4,692 nucleotides of DNA from a virus (IMGVR_UViG_2778261344_000007:1-4692); one strand, 5' to 3'; counted from the first letter of the stretch, positions 1,381 to 4,463 are shown. Numbers and translations are program-made. The notes: a model not told the origin generated them from the letters alone.

Positions 1381-2127
1381 TTACTTCTCAATACCTGGCT
1401 GACCAACATTCGGGCGCCAGCTCTCCCAGTTAAAATTCACCCAGCGCCCGCCGTTCATGGTCATGCGATCCATAATCCGCTCGCCGAGCAATGTTTTCAT
1501 GGCCTCATAGTTCAGGTTTGTCAGCATCCCCACGCTGCGCATTGACGCTGTCCGGCGATCAACAATCTGGTGCAGTACCACCTGCTCGTTTTTCGTCTCG
1601 CGCTGAATACCAATTTCATCAAGAACCAGCAGATCAACTTCGCACAGTTCCCGCAAAAATTTTTCGCCTGACTGCCCGTCGTCATAGCTGGCGTGCAGGG
1701 CGCTCATAACATCAGCCACGGTAACCACAATCACTGTCTGGCCATCTTTCAGCAGGCGATTCCCGATAGCCGCCGCCAGATGGTTTTTTCCGGTACCAGG
1801 TTTTCCGCTGAACGCGAAATTTGTGCATCCGGTAACCAGTTCGTCAGCGATAGATTTCGCCTGACTCAACGCGTATCGCTGGCCGTCGTTCTGCACCTGG
1901 TAATTCGCAAACGAGCATTTGCGGTGCAACGGCTGTATGCCGGAGCGATTCAGGATTTTTTCCACCCGCAACTGACGATTCTGACGGTTGATCTCCTCAC
2001 AACGTTTCTGGCCTTCTGCAAGTTGCCACTCGCGCCACTCCGCCACCGTCCTGAATGGCGCGGTTACATGTGGCGGGGCCAGTCTGCGGATACGTTCCAG
2101 AACGCCGCCTGTCGCAATATTTTTCAT
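1381..2127 (-). CDS. ydaV: DnaC/IstB-like AAA+ ATPase, putative replicative helicase loader (lambda P analogue by position)
   Basis: 248-aa ORF with Walker [12 protein letters not shown] and Walker [10 protein letters not shown] readable in translation. ATG 2125-2127 with AGGGGG upstream; starts 6 nt after the ydaU stop. Length and context match Rac prophage YdaV as I recall it. Confidence 0.88.
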
Positions 2128-2133
2128 GGTCTG

Positions 2134-2922
2134 TTACCCCCTGAAGCCTGGCGGGATCGCACTGTCCGGAAACGAGACGGTGTTAATCTGTCGGAGCAAC
2201 GTCTCTGGCCGAACACCTTTCGGCGCGAACAAGCCCTGGTATTCATTGGCGATGCTGTGTCGAATCACCTGCTCAGGTGAAAAACCCTGCTGGCGGAATT
2301 TTTCCAGCTCCCGTATCGCCCCGTTAGCGCCCTGCTCCGTTCGAATCGGTTTTCGCAATGCCTGCCTGAACTGAACCCACTCATGCCAGAGTGTTTCCGG
2401 CAACCAGTCAGGCAGCTCGATAGCCTCCGGTTCGAATTTTTTAGACGCTCGTTTTTGGCGAGGGGGATTTAGGGGGAGATAAGTATTTATATCTTCCTCT
2501 TTCTCTTCCTCTGGTAACGCTTTTTGATCCGTTTTTGTAACGCTGGCAGCGTTACCTTTTCGTTTCAGTTCTCGTATTTTTGTTACTCTCTCGTTTGTAA
2601 CCGCCCGTTTTTTAGAGCTTTTCCCGTTATGGCGCTCAAAGTTAGGAAGCGACAACACACCATTAGTTTCGACCAGCCATCCAACCTGAATTAACGCATC
2701 AGCAAAACCAGCCATAAAAGTGATGCGATCTATTGCACTTTTTGTAACGCCGCGAGCGTTACACTCTGCGTTACCGTCTATCATTTGTTGATCCGCCCAT
2801 GCCCAGAAGCGAATGACTTTCCCTAATGCGGCATCTGGATCAATATTCAGAATCTCAGCAAGCCTGAATATTTCCGGCTTATCCGGCGTAATAACTTCGA
2901 GCTTTATCCAGTTTGAAGCCAT
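2134..2922 (-). CDS. ydaU: putative replication initiation protein, YdaU family (lambda O analogue by position)
   Basis: 262-aa ORF, ATG 2920-2922 with AGGTGA about 7 nt upstream. Two-domain layout with a charged low-complexity linker (KSSKKRAVTNERVTKIRELKRKG...EEEKEED) whose coding DNA carries the palindrome/T-tract cluster. Lies directly upstream of the DnaC-like gene. Symbol assigned by synteny and length class, not by search. Confidence 0.8.
   Translation of the reverse strand: MASNWIKLEVITPDKPEIFRLAEILNIDPDAALGKVIRFWAWADQQMIDGNAECNARGVTKSAIDRITFMAGFADALIQVGWLVETNGVLSLPNFERHNGKSSKKRAVTNERVTKIRELKRKGNAASVTKTDQKALPEEEKEEDINTYLPLNPPRQKRASKKFEPEAIELPDWLPETLWHEWVQFRQALRKPIRTEQGANGAIRELEKFRQQGFSPEQVIRHSIANEYQGLFAPKGVRPETLLRQINTVSFPDSAIPPGFRG
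2514..2622. other. candidate replication origin: cluster of GTAAC/GTTAC half-sites with T-tracts inside the ydaU linker-coding DNA
   Basis: GTAAC at 2514, 2537 and 2597, GTTAC at 2551 and 2582; T4-T6 runs at 2521, 2532, 2557, 2577, 2608 and 2619. Just upstream lie GGGGGATTTAGGGGGAG (2462-2478) and an AT-rich/polypyrimidine stretch (2479-2510). Confidence 0.35.
2536..2556. repeat. palindrome copy 1: TGTAACGC-TGGCA-GCGTTAC (inside ydaU, codons 123-130 GNAASVTK)
   Basis: Arms of 8 bp read directly; the reverse complement matches. Confidence 0.85.
2743..2763. repeat. palindrome copy 2: TGTAACGC-CGCGA-GCGTTACA (inside ydaU, codons 54-61 CNARGVTK)
   Basis: Perfect 8-bp arms, 5-bp centre, read directly. 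Confidence 0.85.
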
Positions 2923-2934
2923 TTGTTTTCACCT

Positions 2935-2955
2935 TGTAACGCTCGCAGCGTTACA
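2935..2955. repeat. palindrome copy 3: TGTAACGC-TCGCA-GCGTTACA (non-coding, ends 2 nt before the ydaU Shine-Dalgarno)
   Basis: Perfect 8-bp arms read directly; located in the 77-bp ydaT-ydaU spacer. Confidence 0.85.
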
Positions 2956-2964
2956 TTTAACTGA

Positions 2965-2986
2965 TACCGAACAAAACAGTTCGGTA
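2965..2986 (-). other. hairpin TACCGAAC-AAAACA-GTTCGGTA in the ydaT-ydaU spacer (8-bp stem, 6-nt loop, no U-tract)
   Basis: Perfect 8-bp inverted repeat read directly; lies between the ydaT stop (3000) and palindrome copy 3. Confidence 0.4.
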
Positions 2987-2999
2987 CGATTAATTTCAA

Positions 3000-3422
3000 T
3001 CAATGCACTACGACAGAATCGCTAGGAGAACCGCCGCCGCTGAAATGTGCTTTACGGTAAACGGCCTGGACTGCATCATCATGCGCATCAATTGCCGTAC
3101 TCAGTGCATCCTGTGCCGCCAGTAATGCACGGCGTTCCAGGGTATCGAAGATGCAGAGTCGGTGACGCAGCTCGCGAGGAAGAATTGCCAGAACCGCAGG
3201 GATCAGTTTCTGAATTTTTTCCCTTTGCGCATTCGTTTCACCTTTCAACCAACGATGATAGATATTCTGCTGATTGTTCCAGTCCTTGCCTGGTACCAGG
3301 GGCAATTCGCCGCCCCCCTGGCGCAGATATTCTTCAGTAATTGCGTTAGCGACCCACGCCTGCCCTTTTTCGGCTGCCAGGGCTAACAACACTGATTCGA
3401 TGTGCTCATGCTTGATTTTCAT
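3000..3422 (-). CDS. ydaT: YdaT-family protein (CII-like regulator of Rac-type prophages; historically annotated as a toxin)
   Basis: 140-aa ORF beginning MKIKHEHIESV..., which I recognise from memory as YdaT of the E. coli Rac prophage (unverified). ATG 3420-3422 overlaps the ydaS TGA 3419-3421 (ATGA coupling); GGGAG lies 7-8 nt upstream. Confidence 0.88.
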   Translation of the reverse strand: MKIKHEHIESVLLALAAEKGQAWVANAITEEYLRQGGGELPLVPGKDWNNQQNIYHRWLKGETNAQREKIQKLIPAVLAILPRELRHRLCIFDTLERRALLAAQDALSTAIDAHDDAVQAVYRKAHFSGGGSPSDSVVVH

Positions 3423-3429
3423 GAATCAA
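3412..3429. promoter_or_regulatory. perfect inverted repeat TTGATT-N6-AATCAA centred on the ydaS stop / ydaT start overlap
   Basis: TTGATT 3412-3417, ttcatg 3418-3423, AATCAA 3424-3429, read directly. A weaker relative (ACGATT-N6-AATCAA, 2986-3003) overlaps the ydaT stop. Confidence 0.4.
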
Positions 3430-3673
3430 CTCCCATCAGCTTTTTCGTAGTAGTTTTATTTCTGCCAATAGTTAAAATTGCATCGGCAGAAAATAATCCG
3501 TTTGATGCATGAGCGATTTTTTCAGCGTAATTTGTTTCGCCGGTATATTCTGTGCGAGGCAATTTACCGTTATCCATCCATTTGTAGATTGCTCTTTGGC
3601 TGACACCACAAACGTCGGCCACAACAGAAACGCGAACAGTTTTGATTACATCTTCAAGTGTTTTCTGGTTCAT
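3419..3673 (-). CDS. ydaS: Cro-like small HTH regulator (YdaS-like), 84 aa
   Basis: ORF-track frame 3419..3745; start placed at ATG 3671-3673 (MNQKTLEDV...) because GAGGGTGA lies 5 nt upstream, whereas the ATG at 3745 has no RBS and sits inside the repressor promoter. HTH-like segment VADVCGVSQRAIYKWMDNGKLP. First gene of the operon, divergent from the repressor. Symbol by synteny. Confidence 0.75.
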   Translation of the reverse strand: MNQKTLEDVIKTVRVSVVADVCGVSQRAIYKWMDNGKLPRTEYTGETNYAEKIAHASNGLFSADAILTIGRNKTTTKKLMGVDS

Positions 3674-3697
3674 ATCACCCTCACAATGTGAACTTTG

Positions 3698-3732
3698 AGT
3701 ACATGCTATAACAGAACTGACAGTACATTCAA
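3698..3732 (-). promoter_or_regulatory. candidate early-right promoter (PR-like) for the ydaS operon: -35 TTGAAT (plus 3727-3732), 16-bp spacer, extended -10 TGtTATAGC (plus 3705-3713)
   Basis: Read on the minus strand; would give a leader of about 25 nt containing the ydaS RBS. The -10 is imperfect (ends in C). Confidence 0.4.
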
Positions 3733-3753
3733 GAGCGAATATCATTGAACTTA
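3717..3753 (+). promoter_or_regulatory. candidate repressor-maintenance promoter (PRM-like): -35 CTGACA 3717-3722, 17-bp spacer, -10 TATCAT 3740-3745; predicted start at or beside the racR ATG (leaderless mRNA)
   Basis: Hexamers and spacing read directly; the -10 ends 7 nt before the ATG at 3753 and no RBS is present. Lambda cI mRNA from PRM is leaderless (established), which gives a precedent. Confidence 0.45.
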
Positions 3754-4172
3754 TGGTTCATGAAGATAAAGCGCGTAAAGAGTTCGCCAGTAGGCTTGCG
3801 CTAGCCTGTGAAAACGCTGGTTATGAACAACATGGAAGGCAGGCAGAAATTGCCCGTCGAATGAAATTAACACCAAAAGCGGTTAGCAAATGGTTTAATG
3901 GTGAAACAATTCCTCGCCGAGAGAAATTAAGGGAATTAGCAACACTCATTGGAACAACACCAACCTATCTTTTGGGAGAGGATACAGAAGAAAGTGGACA
4001 GATACGTTTCTATCAGGAGTTAAATCCAAGACAAAAAATCATCATTGACCTTCTGGACGAGCTCCCTGACAGTGAGACAGATGAACTTTTAAAAACTCTT
4101 GAGGAGAAAAAACAGAAGTACAATGCAATTTACGAAGAGTTAGCACGAAAGAAAAAACAAAAAGCCTCTTAA
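3753..4172 (+). CDS. racR: CI-like prophage repressor, XRE-family HTH with a charged helical C-terminus (RacR-like), 139 aa
   Basis: ORF with HTH segment QAEIARRMKLTPKAVSKWFNGETIPRREKLRELATLIG, divergent from the cro-like gene. No Shine-Dalgarno precedes the ATG at 3753, but a good -10 ends 7 nt upstream. Symbol is positional (racR-ydaS-ydaT-ydaU-ydaV order). My memory of K-12 RacR length differs, so this may be a variant repressor. Confidence 0.8.
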   Translation: MVHEDKARKEFASRLALACENAGYEQHGRQAEIARRMKLTPKAVSKWFNGETIPRREKLRELATLIGTTPTYLLGEDTEESGQIRFYQELNPRQKIIIDLLDELPDSETDELLKTLEEKKQKYNAIYEELARKKKQKAS

Positions 4173-4182
4173 ACCAGCATAA

Positions 4183-4220
4183 ATCCGGTAGCGTCCCCCT
4201 CCGGGTTTGTGCTTCACTTT
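4183..4220 (+). terminator. weak candidate terminator after racR: stem ATCCGG / CCGGGT (4183-4188 and 4201-4206, one G-U pair), 12-nt loop, then T-rich TTGTGCTTCACTTT
   Basis: Hairpin begins 11 nt after the racR stop. The stem is short, the loop long and the T-run interrupted, so this is weak. Confidence 0.25.
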
Positions 4221-4247
4221 ATCCCGTCTCATTTTTTTATACATAAA

Positions 4248-4291
4248 ATGTACTTAAAGTACTTTACAATGATGAACACAAAGTACATTAT
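4248..4291 (+). promoter_or_regulatory. operator/promoter cluster downstream of the repressor (OL/PL-like): inverted site 4248-4262 containing palindrome GTACTTAAAGTAC, direct site GAACACAAAGTACAT 4274-4288, candidate -35 TTTACA 4263-4268 and -10 CATTAT 4286-4291
   Basis: Motif copies read directly. Hexamers are moderate matches with a 17-bp spacer, oriented toward the small ORFs at 4464 onward. Confidence 0.4.
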
Positions 4292-4463
4292 ATACCTACC
4301 AACCCACCCCGCCCCACAGAACGCCGGGCAATACTTCGAGTTACCAGGCAGTGGTCAGGGGTTAAGTAGCCAGCCCGAGGCGTATGAACATGACGGCGGG
4401 ATTCAAATTTTGCAGTGCAGCAGTTAGTTCCGCCACCCGGCGTTAAGGGGAAATGAGGTCAAC

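Follow-up and report, generated by a model that had tools for sequence, protein, structure and literature searches.

Where a Rac-like prophage begins to replicate, and which protein recognizes the place, are questions raised by a stretch of viral DNA of 4,692 nucleotides (IMGVR_UViG_2778261344_000007:1-4692; the whole stretch is referred to below as the window), which matches, at 100% identity, a Rac-like lambdoid prophage found in Shiga-toxin-producing E. coli (NZ_CP027331 and many others). An origin-like array of short repeats had been predicted at 2514-2622, inside the linker-coding part of a gene for a lambda O-like protein. On the comparative evidence described here, we put at roughly 70% the probability that positions 2478-2954 are the replication origin of this prophage, partly inside its own initiator gene and partly just upstream of it, and we hold it just as likely that this is a lambda-style embedded origin in a widespread initiator family not covered by Pfam. 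All of the comparative tests that were run agree with a lambda-like site in this part of the gene, and it is from such comparison that we infer its activity, in which the initiator would bind at 2478-2954, the DNA would melt and replication would begin.

The features discussed are collected in Table 1. The initiator consists of an N-terminal domain (approximately residues 1-113, encoded by 2584-2922), a charged linker and a C-terminal domain (residues 139-262), and the predicted span of 2514-2622 codes for residues ~101-137. Pfam and NCBIfam scans assigned this protein to no family, and PF17948, the Pfam DnaT DNA-binding domain that is found in the epsilon15 homologue, was not matched by the window initiator. 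The only match was a sub-threshold one to the C-terminus of DnaT, confined to the last 19 residues (NCBIfam NF002770, 16.9 bits versus a cut-off of 201). The likeness to DnaT extends to gene order, as a DnaC-like gene comes next, just as dnaC follows dnaT, but DnaT lacks a sequence-specific origin-binding N-terminal domain. The ydaV gene lies directly downstream of the initiator gene, and its product is presumed to be the partner of the initiator C-terminal domain. The same module, with an identical N-terminal domain, is carried by phage vB_EcoS-673R7, in which the gene is annotated as "DNA replication protein O". Genes for the winged-helix proteins DUF1627 and DUF977 are also found downstream on the minus strand.

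Table 1. Positions of genes and sequence elements, counted from the first nucleotide of the window
Feature	Coordinates	Strand	Description
Repressor gene	3753-4172	+	Opposite strand to the early-right genes
cro-like gene	3419-3673	-	Early-right gene
ydaT	3000-3422	-	CII-like; early-right gene
Mosaic cassette absent from K-12 Rac	2508-3001		Intergenic region, N-terminal domain and every palindrome and half-site
Palindrome 1	2936-2954		GTAACGC-N5-GCGTTAC, exact match; ydaT-initiator intergenic region
Initiator gene	2134-2922	-	262 aa; WP_001304174, annotated "hypothetical protein"; PHROG 2509 "replication initiation protein", E 3e-88
Palindrome 2 and exact half-site	2744-2774		Palindrome 2744-2762, half-site GCGTTAC 2768-2774; N-terminal-domain-coding, gene nt 149-179
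Two further pentamers	2582-2601		GTTAC at 2582, GTAAC at 2597; at best weak auxiliary sites
Palindrome 3	2537-2555		GTAACGCTGGCAGCGTTAC; linker-coding, gene nt 368-386
Downstream half-site	2513-2520		GGTAACGC; gene strand GCGTTACC, codes A-L-P; purine tract comes directly next
Candidate DNA-unwinding element	2478-2512	-	Gene strand: 21-nt purine run AGAGGAAGAGAAAGAGGAAGA (2492-2512), then AT-rich ATATAAATACTTATC
GGGGGA repeat	2462-2477	-	Twice, 2462-2467 and 2472-2477; gene strand CCCCCTAAATCCCCC, codes P-L-N-P-P
ydaV	1381-2127	-	DnaC-like helicase loader; Pfam IstB_IS21 E 2e-20; NCBIfam PRK12377 508.7 bits; DnaC E 7e-91

The five GTAAC/GTTAC pentamers that had been reported for 2514-2622, including one full palindrome, are indeed present (2514, 2537, 2551, 2582 and 2597), and such density is exceptional: GTWAC occurs 18 times in the whole window against 6.3 expected, and none of 2000 dinucleotide-preserving shuffles reached five in a 109-bp span, the maximum being four. 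The T4-T6 tracts are likewise real (2521-2525, 2532-2536, 2557-2560, 2577-2581, 2608-2613 and 2619-2622), with two pairs spaced 11 bp apart, and represent the complement of A-runs that flank the half-sites on the gene strand. Repeat finding revealed, however, that the true unit is not a pentamer interleaved with T-tracts, but a 19-bp palindrome, GTAACGC-N5-GCGTTAC, accompanied by 7-bp half-sites. Three exact copies of this dyad are present, one linker-coding, one N-terminal-domain-coding and one intergenic, although only 0.2 palindromes with up to three mismatches would be expected and three were reached in 0 of 200 shuffles. Eight exact 7-mer half-sites lie between 2514 and 2954, of which those at 2514-2520 and 2768-2774 are additional to the dyads. 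Only three of the five pentamers (2514, 2537 and 2551) belong to conserved half-sites. The other two are lineage-specific Val-Thr codons, which are missing from distant relatives and whose orientation flips, by way of synonymous Val codons, in close ones.

The predicted extent was correct in placing sites within 2514-2622, but too short, as the element continues to 2954, some 330 bp further. The linker itself holds one full dyad and one to three half-sites, with the dyad and the half-site at 2513-2520 encoding residues 123-137, where the N-terminal module meets the shared C-terminal one, in accordance with the linker-coding location originally proposed. The other two dyads lie 188 and then 173 bp beyond it. 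Palindrome 2 and its half-site are translated as G-N-A-E-C-N-A-R-G-V-T. In an AF2 model of residues 1-119 (pLDDT 78), which predicts helices followed by a beta hairpin, the sole internal low-confidence loop (residues 51-57, pLDDT <50) is exactly the peptide encoded by palindrome 2, which fits a location where the modelled fold would tolerate a DNA element; a profile search of PDB sequences gave no match. Palindrome 1 adjoins the initiator Shine-Dalgarno sequence (AAGGTG, 2930-2935, minus strand), with the ATG (2920-2922) located 14 bp downstream. The repressor operators of the window use a different motif, AGTACAT, which is found at 3697, 3721, 4248, 4257 and 4281.

Whether selection acts on these sites as DNA was examined among relatives of the N-terminal domain, a family of 6,370 clusters at 50% identity that is represented in phages of Escherichia, Klebsiella, Xanthomonas, Pseudomonas, Ralstonia, Vibrio and Salmonella. 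The comparative set, drawn from 80 viral contigs together with several phage records, consisted of 72 distinct regions, each covering -150 to +450 relative to the start codon. Exact copies of palindrome 2 were present in 70 of these relatives and of palindrome 3 in 68, and an upstream copy with at most one mismatch was found in 42, at -32 to -76. The arms had zero entropy, the spacers were of 13-20 different kinds and the flanks were variable. The linker palindrome is found at gene nt 358, 367-369, 380, 413 or 425, and thus occupies all three reading frames; it is read as G-N-A-x-S-V-T in one frame and as V-T-x-x-A-L in another, and survives in frameshifted genes. Because this dyad occurs in every frame while its arms stay invariant, it was concluded that selection acts on the DNA. 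The arms are also retained, synonymous positions included, in the GC-rich phages of Xanthomonas and Pseudomonas. In a codon alignment, the only near-invariant third positions were those of Met and Trp codons, position 312 and position 150 in a palindrome arm, but this entropy test was confounded by a four-codon indel and by the linker dyad occurring in different frames, and motif-anchored counts were used in its place. An alignment in which homologues kept the linker peptide and lost the motifs had been named as the outcome that would speak against an origin; the opposite was observed, with the DNA motifs kept and the linker peptide and frame changing.

The second component is the tract that adjoins the linker sites. 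Viewed on the top strand, it is composed of an AT-rich core (2478-2492) and a 21-nt polypyrimidine run (2492-2512), and it ranks among the least stable 0.1% of 40-mers at the window locus and among the least stable 1-2% across loci. In 123 of 127 distinct loci, the purine run next to the linker dyad exceeds in length every other purine or pyrimidine run within 2.5 kb. A GA repeat follows the linker dyad in 59 of 66 loci with the GTAACGC dyad (type A) and in all 64 of those with the epsilon15-type dyad described below (type B). On the gene strand this tract reads CC(A/T)AGAGAAGAGAAG..., also given as CC(A/T)AGAGAAGAGAAGAGAAGA, or (GAGGAA)n, and then gives way to AT-rich DNA, resulting in a layout common to both subfamilies: an optional half-site, the dyad, 5-17 nt, a half-site, the GA repeat and AT-rich DNA. 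A half-site lies no more than 25 nt downstream of the linker palindrome in 60 of the type-A and 54 of the type-B loci, and is kept as GCGTTACC in Xanthomonas, Pseudomonas and Planctomycetota. In the latter, the next 70 nt have a GC fraction of 0.31-0.36, compared with 0.56-0.58 for the locus. Because the peptide is poly-Glu where the repeat is (GAGGAA)n and R-E-E-K-R-R-E where it is (GAGAA)n, it is the DNA of the GA repeat that is conserved, not the peptide. Both of the neighbouring features that the original prediction had reported, a GGGGGA direct repeat and an AT-rich/polypyrimidine stretch, are present, but the former is not a core part of the element. This C-run accompanies 39 of the 66 type-A loci but is rare among those of type B (4 of 64), and it sits within a segment common to the window and K-12 Rac, so that it travels with the C-terminal module rather than with the site cassette.

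An approach that started from DNA was used to determine what accompanies the sites. A scan of 185,579 species, with one genome for each, for two palindromes 170-200 nt apart returned 27 loci, all of which overlap a tblastn homologue of the initiator N-terminal domain (34-96% identity). These loci belong to Enterobacterales, Comamonas, Polaromonas, Thiodiazotropha, several Planctomycetota and one Oscillospiraceae MAG. Across three complete phage genomes, no dyads occur away from the initiator gene. The single plasmid match (CP088505.1) was set aside; this circular contig is made up of phage genes, carries a Mu-like insert and gives no clear indication of replicon function.

Divergent relatives carry divergent sites. 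Initiators of the type of Salmonella phage epsilon15 gp42 (Uetakevirus, Pseudomonas phiPSA1, Ralstonia RPZH3 and Klebsiella BUCT711) have a homologous N-terminal domain of 32% identity and the dyad (T)GTCCGC-N7-GCGGAC(A), at gene nt 66 and ~345, each copy flanked by extra half-sites. Their layout matches that of the window, with a half-site, dyad, half-site, CCAGAGAAGAGAAG... and AT-rich tract, and with another dyad cluster where the N-domain is encoded. They differ from it in the sequence of the dyad, in the position of the first cluster (gene nt 66 versus 149-161) and in usually lacking the C-run. Neither these sites nor any origin is annotated in the epsilon15 record, although it is richly annotated. 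Sites of the form GTAGACG/CGTCTAC are found in Ralstonia phage Raharianne and TGTCAC/GTGACA in a Vibrio phage. Because each subfamily has its own dyad, the site sequence tracks the N-terminal-domain subfamily and not the host. The sites exist, are under selection at the nucleotide level, co-vary and are co-inherited with the N-terminal domain, and always lie beside a purine/AT tract; judged by these sequence comparisons, N-terminal domain and sites are shown to be inherited and exchanged together as one specificity module.

Such exchange is apparent in the comparison with K-12 Rac, which resembles the window in prophage type and gene order and, at 92% DNA identity, in ydaT, the C-terminal half of the initiator gene and ydaV. 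By blastn, the window aligns with K-12 Rac at 92% over 909-2507 and 3002-3428, with no alignment for 2508-3001, a cassette that is found in 687 of 5426 complete E. coli genomes. Because homology resumes at 2507, the AT tract and C-runs are common to the two, together with the C-terminal domain and ydaV, and because the cassette has no K-12 homologue, the GTAACGC dyads are missing from K-12. At the protein level, BLASTP aligned only residues 139-262 with K-12 YdaU (79% identity), hhalign detected no homology for the N-terminal half, and the N-terminal domain of K-12 YdaU is DUF1376 (PF07120, E 3e-26), in contrast to the window protein, which has no Pfam match. The gene had been identified as ydaU, and this holds for its C-terminal half only. 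Rac is known to carry an origin, oriJ, but since the site-bearing cassette is absent from K-12 Rac, the window element is not oriJ itself. K-12 ydaU contains repeats of its own (TGTTCAAACA, 4-5 copies) in the equivalent place, followed by an AT-rich purine tract and C-runs. In the literature searched for oriJ and ydaU, no map of oriJ at nucleotide level came to light; the sole positional clue is a published "oriJ" PCR primer pair that lies inside ydaV (PMC3945230 supplement).

The closest parallel in layout is lambda, whose origin, like the candidate in the window, is situated midway along the initiator gene, where the N- and C-terminal domains join, is composed of ~19-bp dyad-symmetric sites that give way on the sense strand to a purine-rich AT tract in the same order and polarity, is succeeded immediately downstream by the helicase-loader gene, and forms an exchangeable module with the N-terminal domain (PMC7466680). 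The annotated lambda iterons (L200 535-619) are followed by this tract on the sense strand of O. The two systems differ in several respects. Lambda has four iterons within 85 bp, and lambdoid and Stx phage origins have 4-6 in tandem, whereas the window linker has one dyad with half-sites, and an array of at least four closely spaced tandem 18-19 bp iterons is not found in the window. The window also has extra dyad clusters ~190-210 bp upstream, one of them outside the gene, a GA-repeat tract conserved across phyla and a loader that is DnaC-like instead of lambda P-like. The N-terminal domain showed no homology to lambda O by hhalign (probability 0.3%), the initiator had no match to Pfam Phage_rep_O, and no DnaA box was found in the whole window. 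Dispersed sites have another precedent in iteron plasmids with a winged-helix Rep protein (P1 RepA with incC/incA, pPS10 and R6K), in which initiator sites are found beside the rep gene or partly within it. Autoregulation there makes use of inverted repeats close to where rep translation starts, other sites serve to open the origin, and looping can bridge distant sites.

In the mechanism that is proposed for the window, transcription of the rightward early operon, which comprises the cro-like gene, ydaT, the initiator gene and ydaV on the minus strand, would pass through the region. Dimers of the N-terminal domain, which is probably a winged helix, would bind the 19-bp dyads, and single domains would bind the extra 7-bp half-sites. 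The linker cluster (dyad 2537-2555, half-site 2513-2520) adjoins the GA-/AT-rich purine tract (2478-2512) that would melt, and the C-terminal DnaT-like domain would recruit a complex of DnaB with the DnaC-like YdaV onto the melted DNA. The two other dyad clusters, ~190-210 bp upstream, would either be drawn into a looped or wrapped nucleoprotein complex or allow the initiator to limit its own expression, a role for which the location of dyad 1 against the ribosome-binding site may be cited. Helical phasing, considered in view of the ~190-210 bp between dyads, was rejected because protein domain length fixes this spacing, which is not a constant number of helical turns; that of the two upstream clusters may simply follow the length of the domain.

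A more ambitious reading is offered only tentatively, as it is more doubtful than probable. It proposes a two-part origin, common to a large and unannotated initiator family that ranges from Enterobacteria to Planctomycetota, in which a variable dyad evolving together with the N-terminal domain is combined with a near-invariant CCAGAGAAGAGAAG-type GA repeat that would be a specific functional element and more than AT-rich DNA, and in which dyad clusters spaced ~200 bp apart would draw the N-domain coding DNA as a loop into the initiation complex and couple firing to initiator expression. The GA repeat would then act, for example, as a single-strand landing site of the DnaT-like domain or as a triplex-prone mirror repeat that triggers melting.

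Several alternatives to an origin at 2478-2954 were weighed. It is unlikely that the dyads are operators only, through which the initiator or another phage protein would throttle transcription or translation of the replication genes, with the origin at some other place such as ydaV. Dyad 1 sits against the Shine-Dalgarno sequence, dispersed dyads ~200 bp apart look like looping operators, and Rep proteins of iteron plasmids repress their own synthesis through inverted repeats, all of which suit such a role, as does the location of the published oriJ primers in ydaV (PMC3945230 supplement). However, the upstream dyad is absent in 30 of 72 relatives, in contrast to the nearly universal linker dyad by the purine/AT tract. 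Furthermore, no sigma-70-like promoter was found in a scan of 2300-3100, in which terminator-like matches were on the antisense strand or were the palindromes themselves, and the invariant GA/AT tract would be left without explanation beside an operator. Operator and origin roles may nevertheless coexist.

Recognition of the dyads by some factor other than the initiator, such as a partition, packaging, recombination or host protein, is decidedly improbable. The downstream genes do encode further winged-helix proteins (DUF1627 and DUF977), and binding by the N-terminal domain is itself only predicted. Nevertheless, the neighbouring genes vary with the locus (DnaC-like, DnaB-like or DUF1064), leaving the N-terminal domain as the only constant partner (27/27), and a host factor would not be expected to account for two types of dyad in phages of the same enterobacterial hosts.

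There is very little to recommend the idea that the palindromes function as RNA hairpins in the early mRNA, affecting its stability, its processing or translational control of the initiator, although each can fold into an 8-9 bp stem (-11 to -15 kcal/mol) and the first borders the Shine-Dalgarno sequence. The arms are invariant, with zero compensatory stem changes in 72 distinct sequences, and the loops vary freely, which indicates sequence-specific recognition rather than structure alone. In addition, extra half-sites that have no pairing partner are conserved too, the folding z-scores are modest (-1.9 to -3.5), and an Rfam scan of the whole window gave no match. Finally, that the repeats are chance or a by-product of coding G-N-A/V-T peptides in a low-complexity linker has a negligible probability, for although the N-domain dyad overlaps a conserved D-G-N-A motif and two of the five pentamers are plain Val-Thr codons, chance is contradicted by the shuffle tests (0/2000 for pentamer density, 0/200 for palindromes) and a coding by-product is excluded by the frame and synonymous-site data, as the linker dyad occurs in all three frames, one copy is intergenic and synonymous arm positions are invariant even in GC-rich hosts.

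An origin embedded in the initiator gene would supply a precise, testable site for the replication module that ~13% of complete E. coli genomes carry, among them those of O157:H7 Sakai and other Shiga-toxin-producing strains, and would account for the exchange, as a block, of the N-terminal half of "YdaU" between Rac-like prophages. It would also provide a case in which a DNA element dictates the peptide inside a folded domain, since the dyad encodes a G-N-A...V-T loop. The rule that intragenic dyads are followed by a GA/AT tract would allow origins and specificity classes to be read from sequence throughout a family that lacks a Pfam domain and comprises more than 6,000 clusters at 50% identity.

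The GTAACGC palindrome is a DNA element that persists after the reading frame of the initiator gene has been lost. In three viral contigs that carry initiator homologues (L038, L041 and L042), the initiator gene is frameshifted in a poly-A run upstream of the linker-coding region (palindrome at gene nucleotide 369), and all three palindromes are still exact in these frameshifted genes. Two further elements lie near the dyads. The GATC (Dam) site is found at the same place in most, though not all, enterobacterial relatives and is not found there in other phyla. The hairpin received a terminator-like score only on the plus (antisense) strand.

Features of the window and of the K-12 MG1655 Rac locus (L002)
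Feature	Position	Details
GATC (Dam) site	within 2521-2531	gene strand GGATCAAAAAGCGTTACC; between linker palindrome and downstream half-site
Hairpin TACCGAACAAAACAGTTCGGTA	2965-2986	8-bp stem; ydaT-initiator intergenic region, between ydaT stop codon and palindrome 1 (2936-2954)
cro-like gene, longest ORF	3419-3745	start 3745, 108 aa
(A/G)AGTACAT operator-like repeats	3689-3728 and 4243-4294	
TGTTCAAACA-type repeats	L002 5505-5660	four or five copies, both orientations; inside ydaU

The ydaU gene of K-12 also contains a repeat cluster, in which some of the TGTTCAAACA-type copies are spaced 11 bp apart; an AT-rich purine tract and CCCCCCCTAAATCCCCCCCGGGGG come after it. By the same logic as was applied to the window's candidate origin, this cluster is a candidate for oriJ, the origin of the K-12 Rac prophage. 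Published "oriJ" PCR primers are placed not at the ydaU repeats but in ydaV, at L002 6241-6395 (PMC3945230 supplement).

Within the plasmid collection, the sole match to the origin region was CP088505.1, a circular 52-kb E. coli "plasmid" (8330-9100, 69% identity). Its gene content comprises epsilon15/TL-2011b-like phage genes, a Mu-like transposable phage and one IS1, and it is without plasmid replicon typing. CP088505.1 could be a replicating form of a phage that uses a module of the window's type.

The (A/G)AGTACAT operator-like repeats are unrelated to the GTAACGC dyads. Some are arranged as dyads, e.g., ATGTACTTAAAGTACTTTA; one set occupies the gap that separates the repressor gene from the divergent cro-like gene, and the second is downstream of the repressor gene, before the DUF1391 gene. 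In this immunity type, the two sets probably represent the OR and OL operators. The RefSeq start of the cro-like gene is 3673 (84 aa), as opposed to that of the longest ORF; the 108-aa form would overlap the operator-like repeats of the first set. By blastn, the immunity region at 3429-4296 (cro-like gene, repressor and operators) shows no homology to K-12 Rac, although both of its flanks, ydaT and the ydaG/ydaF side, align with K-12 Rac at 83-99% identity. The segment 3429-4296 is a second mosaic cassette within the window.

The initiator ends in 19 residues (244-262; window 2134-2193) that match the C-terminal end of primosomal protein DnaT (NF002770, E 0.004), at a score far below the cut-off, and the Pfam DnaT DNA-binding domain is present in the epsilon15 homologue of the initiator. 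With this sub-cut-off match and the domain of the homologue, the initiator-ydaV pair mirrors the dnaT-dnaC pair of the host.
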